Shown one piece after another: positions 14,086-49,385 of a DNA stretch of 53,123 nucleotides (position 1 is the stretch's first letter; each line of letters starts with the position of its first letter). Below the pieces are notes generated by a model. That model saw only the letters and a list, made by a program, of their open reading frames with translations. It was not told the origin of the DNA and did no database searches. The translations under genes and the position numbers were made by a program. Source of the DNA: Spirochaetaceae bacterium (GTDB taxonomy: Bacteria > Spirochaetota > Spirochaetia > DSM-27196 > PWMO01); contig JBKHCS010000006.1 in assembly GCA_046541715.1 (NCBI GenBank), positions 1 through 53,123 on the forward strand, read 5' to 3'.

Positions 14086-14095
14086 CGGTCAGAAG

Positions 14096-14167
14096 AGCGG
14101 GAGACGGGATTCGAACCCGCGACATCCACCTTGGCAAGGTGGAGCTCTACCACTGAGCTACTCCCGC
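14096..14167 (-). tRNA. tRNA-Gly(GCC)
   Basis: Cloverleaf GCGGGAG...CTCCCGC, anticodon loop TT-GCC-AA, GTTCGAATC. Confidence 0.96.
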
Positions 14168-14219
14168 AATTCGGCGATCGGCGACAATACCGGCGGTGCC
14201 TTGCGGTCGCCCGGATAGG

Positions 14220-14301
<82 letters not shown>

Positions 14302-14360
14302 ACGGTATACCATCTTACAAAAACGTCGTCAATTACGTTTCTCAGACGGTTACGTGGGAT

Positions 14361-14433
14361 TGAGCCGTAGAGGGATCGAACCTCTGACCCGCAGATTAAG
14401 AGTCTGCTGCTCTACCAGCTGAGCTAACGGCCC
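14361..14433 (-). tRNA. tRNA-Lys(CTT)
   Basis: GGGCCGT acceptor, GCAGA-CT-CTT-AA-TCTGC. Confidence 0.96.
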
Positions 14434-14446
14434 ATTATATGAAATG

Positions 14447-14521
14447 TACGCCCGGCAGGATTCGAACCTGCGACCTGCGGATTCGAAGTCCGACGCTCTA
14501 TCCAAGCTGAGCTACGGGCGC
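14447..14521 (-). tRNA. tRNA-Arg(TCG)
   Basis: GCGCCCG acceptor, CT-TCG-AA loop, GTTCGAATC. Confidence 0.95.
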
Positions 14522-14532
14522 AAAATCCGGCG

Positions 14533-14605
14533 GGTGGATGACGGGACTTGAACCCGCAACAACCAGATCCACAATCTGGTGCTCTACCTTTGAACTACAT
14601 CCACC
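14533..14605 (-). tRNA. tRNA-His(GTG)
   Basis: Encoded G-1, GTGGATG acceptor, TT-GTG-GA loop, C discriminator. Confidence 0.96.
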
Positions 14606-14620: not shown

Positions 14621-14724
14621 AGGATGCGAAAATCGCACTCGTTTGTCAACGCCCGCCGGCTGTCCGCCCTCTGCCGGAAATTAACTGAGCGGAAAGTATA
14701 CTCACGCCGGGATTCGGGCGTCAA
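14621..14724 (-). promoter_or_regulatory. Tandem sigma70 promoters of the tRNA operon
   Basis: TTGACG-18-TATACT (14724-14695) and TTGACA-17-CATCCT (14649-14621). Confidence 0.65.
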
Positions 14725-14730
14725 TTCGGT

Positions 14731-14754
14731 AGTATCAACAAGCCTGTTGATAAA
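14731..14754. repeat. 24-bp palindrome family, copy 1
   Basis: agtatcaacaagcctgttgataaa vs consensus ggtatcaacaagcttgttgatacc. Confidence 0.8.
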
Positions 14755-14844
14755 ACAGCGGTAACTCACGACAGTGCTGCACTTTAGACCCAAAAGCCGA
14801 TGCTCAATAGCGTATCGATAGTCCGGCGAACCATTTAGCCTTCG

Positions 14845-14868
14845 TAGATCAACAATCTTGTAGATACC
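14845..14868. repeat. 24-bp palindrome family, copy 2
   Basis: tagatcaacaatcttgtagatacc. Confidence 0.7.
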
Positions 14869-14873
14869 TCAGG

Positions 14874-15824
14874 TCAATTCGCCGAGGTCGGAACCAAGAC
14901 GAAATCGTATCCCCAGTACCGCGCCATCACCCTTCCGGGACGGTCGGACACCGGGGTAGGCACGCGGCCGGGGGCCGACTCACCGTCAGGCGTCCACTCC
15001 CCGGCGACTGTCGACCCGCCTTCGGCCGACGGCGAAAAGTAGACTGTCGCGATGCTAAACCATTCCTTGGGGCGAACCTCCGCGGGAACCGGTTCCGGAT
15101 CCGACACCCGGGCAAGGAAACTCCGCGGCCAGAAGAGCGCCACCGCCGCCTCGTCGTAACCGGGTTGCCGGGATCCATGTATATAAATGATCCGGTTCCC
15201 AAGAGTCCTTACCGACGCAGAGATCGGTCGCTGGTTTTTCCATGCCACGGCGATCCGGTCTATATGGTGGTCCGGCAGGGGCGGCCGGGAGCGGATTCTT
15301 CCGGAGCCGTAGAAGAAATCCCGGTAGTCGAAATCGGTTTCCCCTACCACAGCGAGCCACTCCTCGACGAAGGGGTCCCGAACCACGGCCAGATCTGCCA
15401 GCCATTCAGCGCGAATCTTATGGGGCCGCTCCTTCGTGTGGAAGAGAAACCCCAGATTGCTCAGGAGCATGGCAGGGGCCGGGTAGGGGGCAACGAGACG
15501 GTTGGGATAGACGATATGGAGATGGTAGAAATCCGAACGGCTCACCTGGTCGGCGTACCCCTGGGCGAGAATGCTGGCGATACCCAGCCGTGCAGCCGGG
15601 AGGGTATCCTCGAGGAGGCCGGCGGGATCTCGAAGGAGGCGCCCATCGGGGCCTATCTGTCGCCGGTAGTCCCGCTGGGGAGGTTCCGGCGTCGGCGATC
15701 GGATCTCCGAAAGCGTCGGGCAGGCGGCGAGGGTGGAGAGGAGAACGGCCGAGGCAAACACAGGGAACCGAAGCGTGGGCCGGGCCCGGCGGTCTCGCCG
15801 AGGCGGCCCTATCCGGAAGCCCAT
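14874..15824 (-). CDS. Hypothetical lipoprotein
   Basis: Basic N-terminus, hydrophobic core and lipobox LAAC. The upstream part of the 647-aa track ORF is an off-frame shadow of rarA. Confidence 0.65.
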   Translation of the reverse strand: MGFRIGPPRRDRRARPTLRFPVFASAVLLSTLAACPTLSEIRSPTPEPPQRDYRRQIGPDGRLLRDPAGLLEDTLPAARLGIASILAQGYADQVSRSDFYHLHIVYPNRLVAPYPAPAMLLSNLGFLFHTKERPHKIRAEWLADLAVVRDPFVEEWLAVVGETDFDYRDFFYGSGRIRSRPPLPDHHIDRIAVAWKNQRPISASVRTLGNRIIYIHGSRQPGYDEAAVALFWPRSFLARVSDPEPVPAEVRPKEWFSIATVYFSPSAEGGSTVAGEWTPDGESAPGRVPTPVSDRPGRVMARYWGYDFVLVPTSAN

Positions 15825-41739: not shown

Positions 41740-42870
41740 ATGCCCGACAAACGAATTCTCACCGGCGATCGGCCGACAGGAAGGCTACATCTCGGACACT
41801 ACGTCGGCTCGATAGCCAACCGCGTGCGTCTGCAAGAGAGCTACGACTGCTTCTTTATTATCGCCGATCTCCACACGCTGACGACCAGGCCGGCGAAGGA
41901 ACACATCGAAGAGATATCGCTGAATGCCCGGGAGATGGTCCTCGACTACCTCGCCTGCGGCATCGATCCGAGCCGGTCGACCATCTACCTCCAATCCGCG
42001 GTCCACGAAACCTACGAGCTCAACCTGCTCTTCGAGATGATGGTTACCGTACCGCGGCTCCAGCGCCTCCCGAGCCTGAAGGACATGAAAGAGTCGGCCA
42101 ACCTCGCCGAAATGCCCTTCGGGCTTCTCGGATACCCGGTTCTCCAGACTGCGGACATCCTCTTGCCCCGGGCGCACCTGGTCCCCGTCGGAAAAGACAA
42201 CGAGGCCCACGTCGAGCTTACCCGGGAGATAGCCCGGCGGTTCAACTACCTCTACGGCGAGGTCTTCCCGATTCCCGACGTCCTTATCGGGGAAGTGCCG
42301 ACCCTGGTGGGAACCGACGGAAACGGAAAGATGTCGAAGTCCCTCGGCAACGCGATTCTTCTCGCCGACGACGCCAAGACGGTGGAGAAGCGGGTGATGG
42401 GGATGTACACCGACCCGAACCGAATCCGGGCGGACATTCCGGGGACCGTCGAGGGCAACCCGGTGTTCCAGTACCACGACGTCTTTAATCCCAACAGGGA
42501 GGAGGTCGAAGACCTCAAGACCCGGTACCGGGCGGGCAGCGTAGGGGATGTCGAGGTTAAGCAGAAGCTCGCCCGGGCGCTCAACGCCTTTCTCGACCCG
42601 ATCAGGGAGCGCCGGGCCACCTTCGAGGATCGGAAAGGCTACGTCGACGAGGTAATCTATTCCGGCACCCTCAAGACCCGGGAGGAGGGAAAGGCGACCC
42701 TCTTGGCCGCCAAGAAGGCGATGGGATTGACCGGCATTTGGAACCGGATCAGCCGAAAGGCGGAGGACTTCCGGAAGAAAGAAGACAAGGCGGCCGCAGC
42801 TTCGGCGAGTGCCGGCGCTGGGTCCCCGGGCGCCGGCGCCGGAGGGGCCGCCTCCGGCGTCGCGAAGTGA
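41740..42870 (+). CDS. trpS: Tryptophanyl-tRNA synthetase
   Basis: [27 protein letters not shown]. Confidence 0.96.
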
Positions 42871-43697
42871 CGGCGAACGGGGCTTCCCCGGCCACCGACA
42901 TCGAGCGCTTTCGGGCCCTCATCTACGGCTACTACCGGGCCTACGGCCGGGAGTTTCCCTGGCGCAAGAACATTACTCCTTACCGGGTGTTGGTCTCCGA
43001 GTTCATGCTCCAACAGACCCAGGTCCGCCGGGTCGAAGACTACTTCGGCGCCTTTCTCAGGCAGTTCCCCGACTTCGAGACCTTGGCTGCGGCGCCGCTT
43101 CGGGAGGTTCTTACCCGTTGGCAGGGCCTCGGCTACAACCGCCGGGCGAAACACCTCCGGCTGGCGGCCCTGGGAGTCGTCGACCGGTTCGGCGGAGAGC
43201 TACCTAGCGAGGAGGAGGCACTCCGGAGCCTTCCGGGGATCGGCCCCTACACCGCCGCCGCGATCCGGGCGTTCGCTTTCGATCTGCCGGCGGTGGTCAT
43301 CGACACCAACATCCGCCGGATCTACATTCACTTCTTCTTTCCCGAAGGCGAATCGGTCCACGACCGGGACATCGCACCCCTCGTCGAGGAAACGATGGAT
43401 CCGGCCTCCCCCCGGGAGTGGTACTACGCCTTGATGGATTACGGCGCGGTTCTCGCGAAGTGGTTCCCGAACCCCAACCGCCGGAGCGCCCATTACGCTA
43501 AGCAGGGGCCCTTCGAAAACTCGAACCGTCAGATCCGGGGCAAGGTCCTCCGGTGGCTCACGGCGCACGGCAGCCTCGAAGTAGCCGAGGGACCCCGGCG
43601 CCTCGAGGTCGAGGCCGAGCGGCTCGGCGAGGTCGTCGAAGACCTTGCCAAGGAGGGCTTTCTGCGCCGGGAGGGCGGCCGGCTGGCCCTGCCTTAG
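42867..43697 (+). CDS. mutY: Short A/G-specific adenine glycosylase (MutY-like, no Fe-S motif)
   Basis: [40 protein letters not shown] start overlaps the trpS stop. Confidence 0.88.
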
Positions 43698-43720
43698 GTA
43701 TCAACAAGCTTGTTGATACC
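43697..43720. repeat. 24-bp palindrome family, copy 3 (perfect)
   Basis: GGTATCAACAAG-CTTGTTGATACC between convergent genes. Confidence 0.9.
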
Positions 43721-43724
43721 ACCC

Positions 43725-45632
43725 TCAGCTCTCGGCTGCCTCGAGAAGCAGACCCCGGTGCCACTCCATCAGCTTGCGGTGGGCTTCCCGGTCGTCTCCC
43801 TCCAGGTCGACCATCAGGCGCATCACGGGCTCGGTCTTAGAACCCCGAAACCAGAGAAAGCCCCGCGGTGTCGCGTGCGAGTCCTCGAGTTGCAGCTTGA
43901 GCCCCCCGGTAGCCTCCGGGCTCCGGTTGCCGCGCCCCGGGCGTGCCTCGGTTCCCTCGTAGTTGATCCAGCGAAAGCGGCTTATTCCGAGGGGGGCGAG
44001 AATCGACTCCGCCACCTCTTCCCACCTCTCCTCGGCGAAAGCCTCGTACCGATCCTTTAGTCGAGGGTGATCCACCTTAGAAAGCCGAAGGATTGCCTCC
44101 GGATCCCCGGTTTGGGTAGTAAGGAAGGGAGGAAGCTGCGCGTAGAGGCGGCTCAGGGGATCTGCCTTTGAAGCGCCCCCGGCCCCTCGGGCGGCCCCCG
44201 GGCCGGAGAGATTCGGCAGCCGCAGTAGTTTGATCAGCGCGCCGAGGGTCAAGATGGGGTCTCGAACTCCCGACGGGTGGATAATCACCCCGCCGTTGGA
44301 GCCCTCGCCCATCACCCTTACCACGAACCCTCTCCGGCGAAGCTCCGCCCCGAGGGAGACAACGTTCGCCTCGCCGACCTCGCTCCGGTAAACTGCCGCC
44401 CCAAGTGATTCGGCGACCCGGTCCAACCGAAGAGAGGTTGGGCCGTTCGCGACGATGGCAAGGTCGGCGTTCCCTCGGCCCCGGGCGGCAGCGTAGCCGA
44501 GCTCGGCGAGGGCGGCGAGGGCGAGAAGGCTCTGGGGGTGGACCGCCTCCCCCCGGCGCAATTCCGAGTTGTAGACGACAATGTTGCCCCGGTCGCCGTC
44601 GTTATCCGGAACATAACCGAGGTAGAGGGGGGCCTCCGAGTCCTCGTCTTTGCCGGAAGCGGCTCCTCCCTGGGCGGCGAGGCGCTCTACCGCGGTGATG
44701 CAGTCGGTTAGGCCCGGGCCCTCGGGAAGAATCTGATGGGCGATCTGCCCCGGGGTATCCCCCAAGGCCGTAACCTCGACCCCGAGGCGTCGAAAGAACG
44801 CGACGTCGGGTCCCACCGCCCTCGCGCTCCCGTTAAAGTCGACTACCAGGCTGATAGGTTGCCGAACCTTTTCGGCGGCCACGACGTCGGCGAGTTCCGC
44901 GGCTGCGCCGAGTTCCGGGGTATCGAAGACGGTCCGGAGGAGGAAGTCCCGGTAGGCGTTTCTCGACGCGAGAAGCTCCGCCCCGCTCTCGGAGAAGACC
45001 CCGGGGAGCTCCCCCGGCGGGGCCGCCGTCGGTGCGGTGTTCGCCGGAGTCGAAGCAGCTTCGAGGGATTCCAAACGATGCCTCAAGAGCTCCGCGAAAC
45101 GCCCGAAGGCGTCGGCGTCGAGAACACCGCCGGTCGAACCACCGATCTTGTAGCCGTTATGGCCCACCGGATTGTGGCTCGCCGTGACGTAGAGGAATCC
45201 CGCCGCCGCCGATAGCCCCCGGCTGTAAGCCATTATCTGAGGCGATGGGCAGATGTCGAGGTACCGGACGGCGATACCGGCTCCCGTGGTAGCTTCGCCG
45301 GGAGCATTCAACGACGCCAGGGCGCCGGCGACCACTCCCCGGGCGAGGGCGTCACCCGTCGGCCTGCTGTCCCGTCCGACGACGATCGTGGCCGTCGGCT
45401 CCCTTCCGGTCCGCAGGTATTCGGCCCCGGCATGCCCGACGAGAAAGGCGATTGCCACGTCTACCGGGGAAACCGTCTCGCCGGGATCTTCTTCCCCTCC
45501 CGGAGCCATGACCGCCCGGATTCCACTGGAAGAGACGATGTATTCCCCGAAACGCTCGGCGACCGTCTGGTGCGAAACGACGCCGGGGTGATCTACCGGA
45601 GGGGATTCTATCAGCCAACTTGGAATCTTCAT
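43725..45632 (-). CDS. Alpha-D-phosphohexomutase (phosphoglucomutase/phosphomannomutase-like)
   Basis: SSSGIR, GRDSRPTG, TASHNP, DNDGDR, VGEANV, GEGSNGG, RGSKTEP. Start uncertain. Confidence 0.85.
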   Translation of the reverse strand: MKIPSWLIESPPVDHPGVVSHQTVAERFGEYIVSSSGIRAVMAPGGEEDPGETVSPVDVAIAFLVGHAGAEYLRTGREPTATIVVGRDSRPTGDALARGVVAGALASLNAPGEATTGAGIAVRYLDICPSPQIMAYSRGLSAAAGFLYVTASHNPVGHNGYKIGGSTGGVLDADAFGRFAELLRHRLESLEAASTPANTAPTAAPPGELPGVFSESGAELLASRNAYRDFLLRTVFDTPELGAAAELADVVAAEKVRQPISLVVDFNGSARAVGPDVAFFRRLGVEVTALGDTPGQIAHQILPEGPGLTDCITAVERLAAQGGAASGKDEDSEAPLYLGYVPDNDGDRGNIVVYNSELRRGEAVHPQSLLALAALAELGYAAARGRGNADLAIVANGPTSLRLDRVAESLGAAVYRSEVGEANVVSLGAELRRRGFVVRVMGEGSNGGVIIHPSGVRDPILTLGALIKLLRLPNLSGPGAARGAGGASKADPLSRLYAQLPPFLTTQTGDPEAILRLSKVDHPRLKDRYEAFAEERWEEVAESILAPLGISRFRWINYEGTEARPGRGNRSPEATGGLKLQLEDSHATPRGFLWFRGSKTEPVMRLMVDLEGDDREAHRKLMEWHRGLLLEAAES

Positions 45633-45660
45633 CACGACTACCCTGTCGCCCAACCTACGC

Positions 45661-45684
45661 TCTGTCAACACGCTTGTGGATACC
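45661..45684. repeat. 24-bp palindrome family, copy 4
   Basis: tctgtcaacacgcttgtggatacc. Confidence 0.65.
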
Positions 45685-45692
45685 ACCACCTG

Positions 45693-45721: not shown

Positions 45722-45741
45722 TTTGAAAACGGGGAGTGGCA

Positions 45742-47001
45742 ATGAAAAAGATCCTTGTAATTGATGAGTCGACTCTCGTCCGGAACTACCTCGTCAAGAA
45801 ACTCGAAGAGTACGGATTCGAGGTGGCGGTTGCGGTAAACGGGCTCGACGGGGCTTCGAAACTGCGGTCCGAGACGCCGGACCTCGTTATCATGGACTAC
45901 TTCTTGTCTCGGACCAGCTCCATAGAGCTTCTCGAGAAGAAGAAAGCCGATCCCAACGTCGCGCACATACCCGTCATTATGGCGAGCACCAAGATCGACC
46001 GGCAGAAGCTGGTTCAGGTCTCCAAGTACAACGTCAAGAAGTTCTTTACCAAGCCCATTCGAATCGACTCGCTCCTCAAGACAGTCTCGGAGCTTCTCGG
46101 CGTAGAGGTAACCCTCGACGACTCACCCTGTATTATCGAGGCTCACTTCAACGACGAGATCCTCTTTATCGAGGTCGCGGAGGGGCTCAACAAGGAGAAG
46201 ATCGAGCTGCTCCGGTACAAGATCGAGGAGCTCCTAGACCTCTATCAGGTTCGGGTGCCCAAGGTGCTCTTGATGATGGTCGGCGTCGATATTACCGCGA
46301 ACGATTCCCTCAAGCTGGCCACCCTCCTGAACACGGTTATCGAATACAGCCGTGCGAAGCCCCGGGACATCAAGATTCTTACCAATAACGACTTCGTTAC
46401 CCGCTATGTAGGGGGAAACGAGGATTACAAGGACATCGAAGTAACCAACGCCCTGGACAAGGCCATTACCTCGCTTCTCGGGGGCAAGGCCGGCGATGTG
46501 ATGGACCAGCGTCGAGGCGTCGTCCAGGACCAGTTTCTCCAGGCCTCCTCCCCCCGGAAGGAAGGGAGCGAGAGCTTCCAGATGAAGTTCGAAGGCGAGC
46601 GCCTCGAGCATCCGGATCTGGCTGAGGTTTCCGAAGGCCGGCGCATTATCGTTGTCGACGACGATATGGTAATCCGGGAGCTTATCAAGGCGGCCTTCTC
46701 CGACACCAAGTTCGAGATCGAAACCTACGAAGACGGGAGAACCTTCGTCGAGAACGCCGACGTGAAGAACGCCGATCTGGTTTTTCTCGATCTCATGATG
46801 CCGGAAATGAACGGATTCGAAGTCCTAAAGGTGATGAAGGAACGCCAGGTAAAGGTGCCGATCATCGTTCTTTCGGCCCTCTCGAAGAGGGAGTCGGTTG
46901 TCGAAGCGCTAAAGTTCGGCGTTAAGAGTTATGTAATTAAGCCTCTGAAACCGGAATGGATAAGAAAGAAGGCGACGGAAGTTCTCGCGCTGAGCTTCTA
47001 A
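45742..47001 (+). CDS. Response regulator with two receiver domains and no DNA-binding domain
   Basis: N-terminal REC (ILVIDE, VIMDY, TKP), central unknown region, C-terminal REC (VVDDD, FLDLMMP, IKP). Confidence 0.9.
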   Translation: MKKILVIDESTLVRNYLVKKLEEYGFEVAVAVNGLDGASKLRSETPDLVIMDYFLSRTSSIELLEKKKADPNVAHIPVIMASTKIDRQKLVQVSKYNVKKFFTKPIRIDSLLKTVSELLGVEVTLDDSPCIIEAHFNDEILFIEVAEGLNKEKIELLRYKIEELLDLYQVRVPKVLLMMVGVDITANDSLKLATLLNTVIEYSRAKPRDIKILTNNDFVTRYVGGNEDYKDIEVTNALDKAITSLLGGKAGDVMDQRRGVVQDQFLQASSPRKEGSESFQMKFEGERLEHPDLAEVSEGRRIIVVDDDMVIRELIKAAFSDTKFEIETYEDGRTFVENADVKNADLVFLDLMMPEMNGFEVLKVMKERQVKVPIIVLSALSKRESVVEALKFGVKSYVIKPLKPEWIRKKATEVLALSF

Positions 47002-47021
47002 AGCATCCCGTGCTCAAGACG

Positions 47022-49385
47022 ATGAACGCGCTTCCCGTCGGGGTCCTGGCCCTCGACGAAGAGGCCTTTATCGTCGACGGCAACGACCGTGCTTTCTCCC
47101 TCCTGGTGCCGTGGTCCGGTATGGAAGCGCCCCGAAGCCTCGAGGACGCCGTTCTTCCGGAGGACCGTATACAAATAACCGGAGCGTTCCGGGAGCTCAG
47201 AAACGGTAGCACGGACCGTGCGATGGTCGACGTTCGTACCCTGGTCCAGGGAGACGGCGAAACCTGGGCGCGGATTCGTATTGCCCGTTCACGGGAAGAG
47301 AACGGCGATCACGCCACCTTTGTGGCGACCCTCGAAGACGTATCGGTCCAGAAGCAGGGAGAGACCCGCCTCAAGGCCGCGAAGAACGCCGCCGAGCGGG
47401 CTACCCAGACCAAGAGCGAGTTTCTCGCGAACATGAGCCACGAAATCCGTACGCCCCTCCACACTATCCTCGGAATGACCGAGTTGATGTTGGAGACCAA
47501 TCTGGACCAGGAACAGAGTGAATACGCCACCCAGGTCCGGTTTTCCGCGGAGGTGCTCCTCGGGCTTATTAACGATATTCTCGACTTCTCCAAAATTGAG
47601 GCTGGGAAGCTCACCCTGGAATACATCGATTTCGACCTTCGGCAGACGATGGAAGAAGCCGTCGACATGCTTAGCCTCGAGGCTCACAAGAAGAGCCTCG
47701 ACGTCGTCCTCGATCTCTCTCCGACCCTGCCGGATCTGGTAGTCGGGGACCCGATTCGGATTCGGCAAGTCGTGGTAAACCTCTTCAGCAACGCGGTCAA
47801 GTTTACTTCTTCGGGTCAGATAATGATTCGGGCGCGCCCCCTGGAGGTTAGCCCCCAGGCGGCGACCTTGCGAATCGAGGTTTCCGACACGGGGATCGGT
47901 ATCCCGATGGGCAAGCTCAACCAGCTCTTCCGGGCCTTTACCCAGGTCGACTCTTCGACCACCCGGAAATTCGGCGGGACGGGTCTCGGACTCTCGATCT
48001 CCCGGAACCTCGTCCGAATGATGGGAGGTATTATCGGCGTCGCGAGTCAGGAGGGCCGCGGATCGAGTTTTTGGTTTACCGTTCCCGTCGACGTCGTCAA
48101 TTGGAAACGGATCGACCGCAGGGAGGGGGTCCTCTCGGGCCGACGGATTCTGATAATCGACGACAACGAAGCGAGCCGCCGGGCGCTGGTCTCCTACGTC
48201 GCCGCCAGCGGGGCCGGGTGCGGAGAGGCCGCCGACGGCCGCCGGGCCCTCGAAATGCTCCGGGGGAAGGACGGCGTCTACGACGTGGCCCTCGTCGACC
48301 TCGAAATGCCCGGGATGGACGGGTGGCAACTCGCCAGCGAGATAAACGCAGACAAGACAATCAACTCGACACGCCTCGTGCTGATGAGCCCCCGGGGAAG
48401 CACGACCGGGGAGCCGAAGATGAAGCTTCTCGGTTGGTTCGACGCCTACATTAACAAGCCGATCCGCTACGAGGAGTTGCTGAGCAACCTCGAGACTGTT
48501 CTATCCACCGACTTCGAGTTGGCTGCGGCGGAGGACAAGAATGCCGCTGTCGCTCGGGCGGAGTCTTCCGGGGTAGGAACCGCCCCCGCGGCGGCCCGTA
48601 TTCTCGTCGCGGAGGACCATGTCGTCAATCAACAGCTCTTTCGAACCATCCTCGAAAAGCAGGGCCACACGGTGACCCTTGCCGATAACGGCCGCAAGGC
48701 GATCGAGGCTCTCGAGAGCCGGCCGGTTGATCTGCTCTTTATGGATGTTCAGATGCCGGAGATGAACGGCTACGATGCGACCCGAGAGATTCGGCGGTTG
48801 GGGTACTCGATTCCCATCGTAGCCGTCACCGCGAACGCGCTAAAGGGAGAGCGGGAGAAGTGCCTCGAGGCCGGAATGGACGACTTTTTGACCAAACCCT
48901 TTAAGAGCGCCGATATCACGCCGGTCCTCCGGCGATGGTTGTCACCCGGGGAAGAAACCGCGCCGGAAGCCTTGGAAGAAGTCGAGGAGGTGGCGGAGGT
49001 CGAGGAGATCGCACCGGTCGAGGATGCTTCGGAGGAGCCGATTCTCGATTTCGAGCAGGCACTGGAAGCTTTTATGGGGCAGCGGGAGATCGTCGAAAAG
49101 GTCCTGGCGGACTTCAACACCAAGGTTGCCCAGCAGATCGAGCTTATCCGAAAGAACGTGCCCTCGGGAGACATCGAGCGGGCCCGGACCGAGGCCCACG
49201 GCATAAAGGGGGGCTCCTGGAACTTGGCGGCTTACCGCCTCGGGAACGCCGCCGCGGAGCTCGAAGACATCCTCTCTCGCCGGGCTGTCGACGAGGCGCC
49301 GGAGAGCATCGACCGGGTCGAGGCGGCTTACAAGGAGCTTCAGAAACACCTCGGCGAGATCGGAATCAAAGAGGCGGCTACCTGA
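47022..49385 (+). CDS. Cytoplasmic hybrid histidine kinase (PAS-HisKA-HATPase-REC-REC-HPt)
   Basis: FLANMSHEIRTP, NAVKFT, DTGIG, GGTGLGL, two REC domains, AHGIKGGS HPt. Start between 46956 and 47022. Confidence 0.93.
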   Translation: MNALPVGVLALDEEAFIVDGNDRAFSLLVPWSGMEAPRSLEDAVLPEDRIQITGAFRELRNGSTDRAMVDVRTLVQGDGETWARIRIARSREENGDHATFVATLEDVSVQKQGETRLKAAKNAAERATQTKSEFLANMSHEIRTPLHTILGMTELMLETNLDQEQSEYATQVRFSAEVLLGLINDILDFSKIEAGKLTLEYIDFDLRQTMEEAVDMLSLEAHKKSLDVVLDLSPTLPDLVVGDPIRIRQVVVNLFSNAVKFTSSGQIMIRARPLEVSPQAATLRIEVSDTGIGIPMGKLNQLFRAFTQVDSSTTRKFGGTGLGLSISRNLVRMMGGIIGVASQEGRGSSFWFTVPVDVVNWKRIDRREGVLSGRRILIIDDNEASRRALVSYVAASGAGCGEAADGRRALEMLRGKDGVYDVALVDLEMPGMDGWQLASEINADKTINSTRLVLMSPRGSTTGEPKMKLLGWFDAYINKPIRYEELLSNLETVLSTDFELAAAEDKNAAVARAESSGVGTAPAAARILVAEDHVVNQQLFRTILEKQGHTVTLADNGRKAIEALESRPVDLLFMDVQMPEMNGYDATREIRRLGYSIPIVAVTANALKGEREKCLEAGMDDFLTKPFKSADITPVLRRWLSPGEETAPEALEEVEEVAEVEEIAPVEDASEEPILDFEQALEAFMGQREIVEKVLADFNTKVAQQIELIRKNVPSGDIERARTEAHGIKGGSWNLAAYRLGNAAAELEDILSRRAVDEAPESIDRVEAAYKELQKHLGEIGIKEAAT

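Follow-up and report, generated by a model that had tools for sequence, protein, structure and literature searches.

A palindrome on either side of a phosphohexomutase gene

The window analysed here is a 53,123-nt stretch of DNA from a Spirochaetaceae bacterium (genome G000, 94% complete), in which a PGM/PMM-family phosphohexomutase gene (43725–45689, minus strand) carries a copy of the same 24-bp palindrome at each end, raising the question of what kind of site this is and whether it has any bearing on the gene it brackets. The original prediction described a dispersed DNA site of unknown kind and listed as candidates a chromosome-architecture site, paired DnaA boxes, a REP-like RNA hairpin and the recombination sites of a gene cassette. 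The observation itself is confirmed and its interpretation is partly supported: the motif is indeed dispersed, intergenic and AT-rich, but it is an IS/MITE-family end sequence and not an unknown host site. In all probability, a family of insertion sequences (IS) of free-living spirochaetes, together with its gene-less derivatives, has this palindrome as its terminal inverted repeat, and the two copies flanking the mutase gene are coincidental solos of different age.

The perfect 24-mer, GGTATCAACAAGCTTGTTGATACC, occupies 43697–43720 and, as described, the stop-to-stop gap between the convergent mutase gene and a HhH-GPD base-excision glycosylase gene (MutY/Nth-like; 42738–43697, plus strand), whose TAG stop overlaps the first G of the palindrome. 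The two arms, GGTATC...GATACC, both represent the 'outer' type of IS end and surround an AAGCTT centre. This copy is the sole match in the window at three mismatches or fewer, and none of 100 shuffles contained a match. The second copy, TCTGTCAACACGCTTGTGGATACC at 45661–45684, differs from the 24-mer at five positions and is an old, decaying solo; it lies in the spacer that separates the mutase gene from a divergent operon of a response-regulator gene and a hybrid histidine-kinase gene (45736–49385, plus strand). A conserved TGTCAA, the minus-strand form of the TTGACA that this copy had been said to overlap, forms part of its left arm; TTGAAG, the putative -35 element, starts 8 nt past its right end, and ACC directly follows both this copy and the perfect one. 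Two further copies at 14.7–14.9 kb are also present (14731–14754, four mismatches; 14845–14868, five mismatches), but the arrangement of four copies in two pairs does not stand, as the 14.7-kb pair is a single element of ~144 bp and the mutase-flanking copies are unrelated solos of different age. An intrinsic (Rho-independent) terminator, in which a U-tract follows a GC-rich stem, was considered at 43697 and rejected: the stem forms but is AT-rich, no U-tract or T-run follows it on either strand, and a terminator scan made no call.

Abundance and patchy distribution of the motif

Counting and mapping the motif genome-wide, as had been suggested, reveals many further copies. The 24-mer occurs 1, 3, 7, 15, 32, 68 and 96 times at up to 0, 1, 2, 3, 4, 5 and 6 mismatches, respectively, and its core irrespective of the centre, TCAACA-N4-TGTTGA, is found 49 times exactly and 88 times with at most one mismatch in the 3.3-Mb genome. 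Two mononucleotide shuffles of the genome contained no exact core, and 4 and 7 cores at up to one mismatch. Of the 96 copies, 70 are intergenic according to a rough ORF model with 91% coverage of the genome. Among 41 related genomes, the motif is present in 10, including all four of the genus (G000 and its congeners G001, G002, and G003), and absent from 31; a reversed-pattern control gave no match in any genome.

This patchy distribution, together with contig breaks and target-site duplications at the copies, does not support the proposal of paired DnaA boxes or of a chromosome-architecture site. DnaA boxes are TTATCCACA-like 9-mers that cluster at the origin. A DnaA box cluster was rejected as a candidate, the consensus arm of the palindrome being TGTTGATAC and only the decayed copy at 45661 reading TGTGGATA, in addition to the absence of the motif from the 31 relatives.

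An insertion sequence bounded by the palindrome

An intact element with the motif at both ends is found in the same-genus genome G001 (contig C56, locus L013; ~1476–2725). Its left end reads AGTATCAACAACCCTGTTGAT at ~1476 and its right end TGTATCAACAAAGTGGTTGATACT at ~2725, and it encloses a single uninterrupted ORF of 389 aa (1552–2721). The IS is thus ~1.25 kb long, starts with ...(G/A)GTATCAAC-N6-GTTGAT... and closes with the inverse of the same sequence, the transposase reading frame terminating within the right repeat. An empty site is present in G002, where the intergenic DNA is too diverged for a duplication to be read.

The genome under study contains at least six full copies of this IS, collapsed in the assembly. 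Eleven of its contig ends break inside IS ends (six left-end and five right-end), and at each of the six left-type contig ends unique DNA leads into the motif and then into the initial ~30 bases of the IS left end. Contigs from the sequencing runs that contain the window span the whole IS, with a word depth of ~67–75 vs ~11–13 in the flanking records, a depth that is not to be read as copy number, and loose ends match the flanks of contigs C113 and C203. It is only in these junctions and run contigs that the IS is seen in this genome, whose assembly has no complete transposase gene, just fragments (contigs C192 and C114). IS and MITE ends explain many of the contig breaks in these metagenome-assembled genomes (MAGs).

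Related IS copies elsewhere have related, partly dyad-symmetric ends. In G038, the motif coincides with the 3′ ends of transposase fragments at eight places; G012 holds 9–11 motif copies, yet no transposase match; and G007, G013, and G020 encode close transposase homologues but have 0–1 copies of the exact motif, their ends having diverged. Site pairs 1.6–6 kb apart in G030 and G038, searched for full elements, enclose only housekeeping genes, which encode a radical SAM enzyme, a thioesterase, a TMEM175-like channel, an Rce1-like protease, and a ParA-like ATPase.

The transposase and its relation to known families

The 389-aa protein (P0001) falls below every Pfam and NCBIfam cut-off. Its AlphaFold model (pLDDT 86, pTM 0.88) has a β3-α-β-α-β core, for which the best Foldseek matches in the PDB are the ISCth4 (IS256-family) transposase (6xg8; E 4.8e-5), retroviral integrases, and Mos1, so that P0001 is predicted from this model to possess a DDE-type, RNase-H-like core. 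Across 29 homologues, D124, D214, E271 and E275 are invariant and D262 is nearly so; any one of D262, E271 and E275 may be the third acidic residue. The core is accompanied by an N-terminal domain with a CxxC...CxxC zinc finger and a helix-turn-helix, and it is this domain that would bind the dyad of the element ends. A total of 312 homologues were found, many of them on contigs of 1.2–1.9 kb, and all 39 loci from representative genomes belong to MAGs labelled Spirochaetota. In their source records these proteins are named 'transposase-like protein', 'hypothetical protein' or not at all, and a full-text literature search found no paper on this IS family or on the motif. The metagenomic members of the family number in the hundreds, and none of the curated protein-family models recognizes it at threshold.

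Two known families share features with the protein. With the IS1 family (the IS1/IS1595 zinc-finger group), the element shares the zinc finger and helix-turn-helix and a similar size of ~1.25 kb; all 29 homologues weakly match NF033558 (best E 2.4e-9), and among Atlas clusters with a Pfam name the nearest is one with DDE_Tnp_IS1 (score 0.92). Target duplications of 8–9 bp are typical of IS1 elements, and three of the gene-less copies described below have duplications of 9 bp. P0001 differs, however, in scoring 17.1 bits against an NF033558 cut-off of 100, and PF03400 was not reported at E ≤ 1. IS1 itself joins insA and insB′ through a programmed -1 frameshift, though single-ORF subgroups exist, whereas the present element has one uninterrupted ORF and ends unlike those of IS1. 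The resemblance to ISL3 is confined to the N-terminal zinc finger and helix-turn-helix, over which all 29 homologues match weakly (best E 1.9e-9) and HTH_Tnp_ISL3 is touched by 11 of the 29; P0001 reaches 26.2 bits against the NF033550 cut-off of 180, over residues 9–107 only, and the catalytic PF01610 was not reported. The passages covered of PMC10017437 add nothing on IS1 target duplications.

Gene-less doublets and target-site duplications

Besides the collapsed full IS, the genome contains ~17 MITE-like doublets and solo copies. The doublets comprise 17 inverted site pairs, 114–134 bp apart, that enclose a core of variable sequence, and measure ~140–160 bp. In 10 of the 14 strict pairs the two centres read AAGCCT and AGGCTT; doublets occur in both orientations on one contig, and two of the copies are 100% identical over 100 bp. 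The doublet in the window (14728–14871) consists of the inverted copies at 14731–14754 (centre AAGCCT) and 14845–14868 (centre AATCTT) with ~90 bp between them, and has three extra terminal bases per side outside the 24-mers. It is flanked by a 9-bp target-site duplication, GTCAATTCG, whose left copy at 14720–14728 matches the right copy at 14873–14881 in nine of nine positions; the phase of the left copy is ambiguous by 1 nt, the alternative being CGTCAATTC at 14719–14727. The doublet is absent in G003, where the empty site GGGCGTCAATTCGCTGG has one copy of the target, and a G002 contig breaks inside the same insertion. The doublets on contigs C25 and C164 are likewise missing at the orthologous sites of congeners. 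Perfect 9/9 duplications, 3 nt outside the 24-mers, accompany 3 of the 17 doublets, vs 1 in 2000 random placements, and no target duplication is detectable at the other 14.

The insertion at 14.7 kb adjoins a promoter-like TTGACG-18-TATACT (14695–14724, minus strand) ahead of a cluster of five tRNA genes, and these five tRNAs are all that an Rfam scan of the window returned at the gathering threshold. The -35 hexamer of this promoter lies within the duplicated target, and the doublet therefore sits directly upstream of the promoter.

The reading of the palindrome as the mark of an IS/MITE family rests on its presence at both ends of a transposase-bearing element, its numerous copies, their polymorphism, the target duplications, and the patchy distribution. 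The arrangement follows that of other DDE-transposase elements and their MITEs, in which an autonomous copy holds one transposase gene between terminal inverted repeats and short, gene-less copies have the same ends; the 9-bp duplication, the mostly intergenic location, the presence or absence among close relatives and the breaking of assemblies are all shared with such elements. Correia/NEMIS elements and other IS-derived MITEs are bacterial examples of such derivatives. What sets the present family apart is that each end is itself near-palindromic (arm, 4–6 nt, arm), and it is for this reason that fully symmetric solo copies exist, and that the ends lie 2–14 nt from an outward TTGAC far more often than expected from background.

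Singlets and inverted doublets of short extragenic palindromes, here ~100–130 bp apart and often right after genes, are also the layout of REPINs, and of the options in the original prediction the REP-like one comes closest. Mobilization as a REP/REPIN family by a RAYT, a Y1 transposase of the IS200-like type, is nevertheless highly unlikely, since the linkage to a RAYT that this would entail is not found. G000 has no match to Y1_Tnp (PF01797), two of five motif-bearing relatives have one, and the 3.2-kb loci around both of those genes are free of the motif, which flanks a DDE-type gene instead. Duplication of 9 bp of target, moreover, is not known as a trait of Y1 transposases.

The two copies at the mutase gene differ in age

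The doublets and full elements having been assigned to an IS family, the solos around the mutase gene can be dated by comparison with the congeners. The solo at 43697 is absent from the orthologous stop-to-stop gap of G001, G002, and G003, and is a recent gain confined to the lineage of this genome. The copy at 45661 is common to all four genomes of the genus, the same spot reading TCTGTCAACAAGCTTGTTGACACC in G001, GGCATCAACAGGCTCGTTGATACC in G002, and GGCATCAACAGTCTCGTTGATACA in G003, and no copy exists at the orthologous spot of G009, from another genus. Solos shared by G000 and G001 differ at ~3 of 24 bases, similar to the genome-wide divergence of 10–12%, and one shared solo is partly deleted in G001. 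The 45661 solo predates the genus and is decaying at about the neutral rate.

The order glycosylase–mutase–regulator is kept in motif-free relatives. A suggested check was whether relatives lack or invert the bracketed gene and retain one site; the mutase gene stands in place where the motif does not. Since the flanking copies arrived at different times, they are no mark of a gene cassette or of a regulatory site: the two solos bracket the gene by coincidence, and the gene, an ordinary syntenic one, is itself nothing special. The restriction of one copy to this genome, the genus-wide presence of the other, and the constancy of the gene's place without the motif lead to rejection of the cassette, DnaA-box, and operator readings alike.

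A cassette reading would make the palindromes recombinase sites (integron attC-like, or Xer/dif-like of 9-6-9 form) that bracket a mobile gene. The arm/6-bp spacer/arm structure does resemble the core site of a tyrosine recombinase, one gene is flanked by two copies, and some contigs carry several sites 1–2.5 kb apart, but the copies at 43697 and 45661 differ in age, paired sites are inverted rather than direct, what the sites enclose in relatives is ordinary housekeeping genes, and the mutase gene is syntenic in motif-free relatives. Nor does the genome encode an integron integrase at cut-off; a search with TIGR02249 returned just two Xer-like recombinases, the best at 80 bits vs a cut-off of 265. 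Recombination sites are therefore an extremely improbable explanation.

Origin and possible function of the solo copies

If the solos are remnants of the IS family, symmetric copies could form when an inserted element loses its interior, either because slippage occurs between the direct-repeat portions of the two palindromic ends or because a single end left behind is converted into a more symmetric form. The nearly precise excision of Tn10 and template-switch mutation at quasi-palindromes provide precedents for the reduction of an inverted-end element to a small palindrome or for the perfecting of an imperfect one. At C6:2105, the right arm is of 'inner' type (GATAGA or GATGGA) in three congeners, where this genome has GATACC through clustered changes. 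These processes would be expected to leave a flanking duplication, which is seen at no solo here. None of the 47 sites classed as solo, the perfect one included, has a duplication at 8/9, the best being 7/9, and no 9-bp duplication flanks 43697–43720. The gap that holds the perfect solo is longer than that of G001 by just 18 nt, while insertion followed by internal deletion would predict ~39 nt. Apart from a hairpin that may form in RNA or DNA, the solos would serve the host in no way.

Alternatively, the host may have taken the solos over as RNA hairpins that act as bidirectional terminators without a U-tract or as stabilizers of 3′ ends between convergent genes, a role that would be compatible with an IS origin. 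The solos at 43697 and at C169:28858 both fill convergent stop-to-stop gaps, and the latter locus has different small hairpins in G002 and G003; the RNA would form a 10-bp stem with a 4-nt loop (approximately -13.7 kcal/mol), with a z-score of -2.8 on the plus strand when flanks are included; and several solos lie 0–5 nt from a stop codon according to rough ORF calls. Other solos, however, are located in divergent promoter spacers, and the shared copies decay at a near-neutral rate, with one partly deleted in G001. Such co-option is considered unlikely. In annotation, the ~90 intergenic palindromes found here and their counterparts in related genomes are best recorded as IS/MITE ends and not as operators, origins, or recombination sites.

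Insertion next to TTGAC

The outward flanks of the elements are enriched in TTGAC. In 16 of 72 flanks, this pentamer lies 2–14 nt from the element end and points away from it, vs a background of 3.5%, and the adjoining copies include those at the response-regulator operon and at the tRNA promoter. The proximity of many copies to TTGAC -35-like hexamers, together with the perfect dyad symmetry of 10-bp arms, would also suit an operator, recognized either by a dimeric transcription factor that controls a large regulon or by a repressor derived from a transposase. Against this are the location of copies between convergent stops, which had already been taken to argue against a simple repressor site, a judgement that is upheld, and the patchiness among close relatives (10 of 41 genomes). 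Furthermore, congeners differ in the copies present at syntenic loci, the repeat interrupts contigs, and 9-bp duplications accompany some copies. An operator is accordingly very improbable.

For a mobile family with these ends, the same bias raises the possibility that the element selects its targets. It may be, though this is offered tentatively and is more doubtful than the assignment of the palindrome to an IS, that the elements constitute an uncatalogued, spirochaete-restricted IS family with a sub-threshold DDE transposase and dyad-symmetric ends that targets positions a few bases upstream of TTGAC. Targeting of this kind would cause the family and its MITEs to accumulate immediately upstream of promoters, where such 'promoter-hugging' could rewire the transcription of neighbouring genes; the symmetric solos would then be a by-product able to outlast the age of the genus. 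Should the bias reflect targeting and not selection, it would represent an elegant bacterial example of insertion close to promoters. The pentamer TTGAC is -35-like and is also similar to the element's own half-site.

A Dispersed Palindromic Repeat

The 24-bp palindrome of the window is a real observation and ordinary in kind, being the end repeat of an insertion sequence (IS) and of MITE-like elements. The perfect copy, GGTATCAACAAGCTTGTTGATACC, occupies positions 43697-43720 and fills the gap (context ...CTGCCTTAG-GTATCAACAAGCTTGTTGATACC-ACCCTCAGC...) between an HhH-GPD glycosylase ORF on the left (42738-43697, + strand) and a convergent PGM/PMM-family mutase ORF on the right (43725-45689, - strand). 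A copy with five mismatches, TCTGTCAACACGCTTGTGGATACC, lies at 45661-45684, with the start of the mutase gene on one side and an operon for a response regulator and a hybrid kinase on the other, and two further copies, at 14731-14754 and 14845-14868, form the window's doublet, a pair of inverted 24-mers. The coordinates originally predicted for all copies were correct.

Across the 3.34-Mb assembly of this genome (213 contigs, 61% G+C), 1, 3, 7, 15, 32, 68, and 96 copies were found at up to 0, 1, 2, 3, 4, 5, and 6 mismatches, respectively, and 70 of the 96 are intergenic under a rough ORF model covering 91% of the genome. The centre-blind core TCAACA-N4-TGTTGA occurs 49 times exactly and 88 times with at most one mismatch, against 0 exact and 4 and 7 one-mismatch occurrences in two shuffles of the genome, bearing out the original prediction of a dispersed site. 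Seventeen doublets are present, with inverted 24-mers 114-134 bp apart and, in 10 of 14 strict pairs, AAGCCT at the centre of one side and AGGCTT at that of the other. The outer arms of the doublets are conserved, (A/G)GTATCAACA ... TGTTGATAC(C/T), the inner arms are looser, and the interiors fall into several sequence groups. The 17-doublet alignment also contains a conserved CTAA (or TAA) ∼9-10 nt inside the inner arm of one side and its complement on the opposite side, which may represent a sub-terminal signal. Of the 47 solo copies, about half lie between genes and show a clear relationship to the family; some of the genic matches are probably due to chance.

The Palindrome as the End of an Insertion Sequence

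The core is present in 14 of 426 contig ends, with copies ∼30 bp from the end; six ends share one continuation (...GTTGATTGAATCACGGTGAATCCT...) and five share another (...GGGATTTGATGCTTATGCATCAAC...). The six-end continuation was matched once in a same-genus genome, at contig C56 of G001, within an element of ∼1.25 kb that opens with AGTATCAACAACCCTGTTGATTGAATCACGG..., contains a single 389-aa ORF (P0001), and closes with ...GGGATTTGATGCTCATGTATCAACAAAGTGGTTGATACT. Since this element carries both continuations, the two kinds of contig end correspond to the two termini, left and right, of a single IS, whose right repeat holds the last codons and stop of the P0001 ORF. Contigs from sequencing runs that contain the window span the whole IS at a word depth of ∼67-75, compared with ∼11-13 in flanking records (summed word depth here does not equal copy number), and their loose ends match the flanks of contigs C113 and C203. 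Within the assembly, tblastn found only fragments of the IS interior, in C192 and C114. These diverged and broken P0001-family fragments (C192:4563-4966 and C114:2987-3286; 32-42% identical to P0001) indicate older invasions.

Related ends delimit family members in Alkalispirochaeta (GAAGTATTCACAAGCGTGTTGA... and ...TATCAACAGGCTTGTGAATACTTC), in another MAG (TATCAACAAGCGTGTTGAT... and ...TATCAACACGCTGCGTGATACTTCC), and in the relative G007 (TATCCACAACCTTGTGGGT), and the internal dyad symmetry recurs in all of these, imperfectly. In G038, from another family, transposase fragments have their 3' end at the motif in eight places, many at contig ends. The motif also occurs in G038 in arrays of exact 113-bp spacing (C3:70575-70820 and four other places), one of which has three copies; this spacing differs from that of the 114-134-bp doublets.

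Mobility of the Doublets

On one side of the window's doublet is a lipoprotein-like gene, and on the other the promoter-like site (TTGACG-18-TATACT, 14724-14695, - strand) of a five-tRNA cluster (Gly-GCC, Leu-TAG, Lys-CTT, Arg-TCG, and His-GTG; 14095-14604, - strand). The congener G003 has no doublet there, its empty site reading GGGCGTCAATTCGCTGG, and in the genome of the window GTCAATTCG flanks the doublet on both sides, 2-4 nt outside the 24-mers. At two more doublets, perfect 9-bp duplications stand at exactly 3 nt from the outer edge of the 24-mers, a 9/9 match that arose in 1 of 2000 random placements; target duplications were not detected at 14 of the 17 doublets. The C25 and C164 doublets are missing from the orthologous sites of congeners. 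The doublets C123:12214-12361, which has a perfect 9-bp duplication, and C164:2232-2379, which is missing from all three congeners, have interiors 100% identical over 100 bp, a pair whose sequences suggest very recent movement.

The tRNA cluster itself is 93-94% identical in G002 and G003. The ORF adjoining the doublet (14874-15800, - strand) is ∼300 codons long, matches no Pfam family, and carries a signal of lipoprotein type (...VFASAVLLSTLAAC...); G003 lacks the ∼950-bp stretch containing it and has the next gene directly beside its tRNA cluster.

The Transposase Family

P0001 reached no Pfam family, with weak helix-turn-helix matches only, and its NCBIfam matches were all sub-threshold (ISL3, 26 bits against a cut-off of 180; IS1, 17 bits against a cut-off of 100), as were those of 29 of 29 homologues (best E values 1.9e-9 for ISL3 and 2.4e-9 for IS1). 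Homologues at E ≤ 1e-3 number 312 and are named only "transposase-like protein" or "hypothetical protein"; the 120 listed range from 341 to 407 aa in length, many lie on contigs of 1.2-1.9 kb, and none has a precomputed Pfam domain. All 39 family loci found in species-representative genomes belong, by their titles, to Spirochaetota MAGs, and the family profile matches 29 of 41 related genomes, among them closed ones in which more distant members number 12-14 copies.

The AlphaFold model of P0001 (pLDDT 86, pTM 0.88) has a β-β-β-α-β-α-β core following a zinc-finger/helix-turn-helix N-terminus, and its best Foldseek matches in the PDB are the ISCth4 transposase, retroviral integrases, and Mos1. 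No variation occurs at D124 or D214 among 29 homologues, and D262, E271, and E275 are candidates for the third acidic residue. The nearest Pfam-named Atlas cluster is DDE_Tnp_IS1 (score 0.92), which serves as a lead only. On the basis of the sub-threshold matches, predicted core, and invariant aspartates, P0001 is called a putative DDE transposase whose N-terminal domain links it distantly to IS1 and ISL3, though by curated thresholds it is a member of neither. Less ordinary is a family below the threshold of every curated Pfam and NCBIfam model compared; a full-text literature search found neither family nor motif, ISfinder names being outside this comparison.

Two Copies around the Mutase Gene

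The original prediction listed recombination sites of a cassette among several readings of the two copies that bracket the mutase gene. The convergent gap reads TAG-GTATCAACAAGCTTGTTGATAC-CACCC-TCA in the window and TAG-CTCCCACCT-TTA in G001 (region 88-90% identical), and G002 and G003 have other short spacers. As the 24-mer is missing from this gap in all three congeners, the perfect copy was gained in the lineage of the window. The upstream copy occupies the same place in all four genomes of the genus, variously decayed, and in the window and G001 a small deletion, judged against G002 and G003, seems to have joined its left arm to a conserved TGTCAA; the upstream spacer of G009, from another genus, has no copy. 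In at least nine relatives from outside the genus, matches to the glycosylase end and the regulator start share a contig and are separated by 2.4-3.8 kb, with the mutase C-terminus between them in all seven examined, and several relatives with this gene order have zero copies of the motif. The separate histories of the two copies and the conserved synteny thus rule out a cassette.

In the motif-free relatives G004 (L032 ∼2595-2840), G009 (L029 ∼2590-2740), and G010 (L034 ∼517-680) the glycosylase/mutase gap contains other GC-rich tandem repeats, with units ...GGTGAGGCGCACCGAC... in G004 and CCCGCGGGCGGCC in G009.

Decay and Origin of Solo Copies

As RNA, the solo at 43697 can fold into a 10-bp stem with a 4-nt loop (∼-13.7 kcal/mol), and a second solo, C169:28858, likewise fills a convergent gap, at a locus where G002 and G003 have unrelated small hairpins. 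No U-tract follows the 43697 copy on either strand, and a terminator scan made no call there. Use of the solo as a hairpin by the host is conceivable but finds no positive support. Solos shared with G001 differ at ∼3 of 24 bases, like background divergence, the C77 solo is partly deleted in G001, and the C164:4913 solo has decayed in G001 and almost vanished from G002, so that the five loci compared show no sign of purifying selection.

Solos are of two types, one pairing an outer arm with an inner one, as a lone remaining end would (e.g., C6 in G001-G003 and C77 in G002), and one symmetric, with two outer arms, as at 43697. Because each element end is palindromic, a property less ordinary in itself, the two ends of an element have direct repeats in common; slippage from one to the other would delete the interior of an inserted doublet or IS to leave a symmetric solo. 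This route predicts that the 9-bp duplication is kept; none was found at any solo whose flanks were compared, and the 43697 gap exceeds that of G001 by only 18 nt. The C6 solo end (C6:2105-2128), common to the whole genus, is a near-perfect palindrome in the genome of the window only, where an inner-type arm (GATAGACCG) has become outer-type (GATACCTTG) through four changes clustered within 6 nt; conversion or quasi-palindrome template switching may have perfected it.

TTGAC beside Element Ends

A third less ordinary feature is the closeness of element ends to TTGAC. Reading away from the element, TTGAC occurs within 30 nt in 16 of 72 outward intergenic flanks of outer-type arms (starting within 14 nt in 15 of the 16), compared with 3.5% of intergenic 30-mers (binomial P = 4e-9) and with 2 of 72 flanks in the opposite orientation. 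This adjacency accounts for two details of the original prediction, the contact of the upstream mutase copy with a TTGACA and its position 8 bp ahead of a -35. The adjacency may reflect target choice, conceivable given the likeness of TTGAC to the TGTTGA(T/C) arm of the element, or survival of insertions that spare a promoter. In the empty site that corresponds to the window's doublet, the TTGACG forming the -35 of the tRNA promoter-like site is already present.
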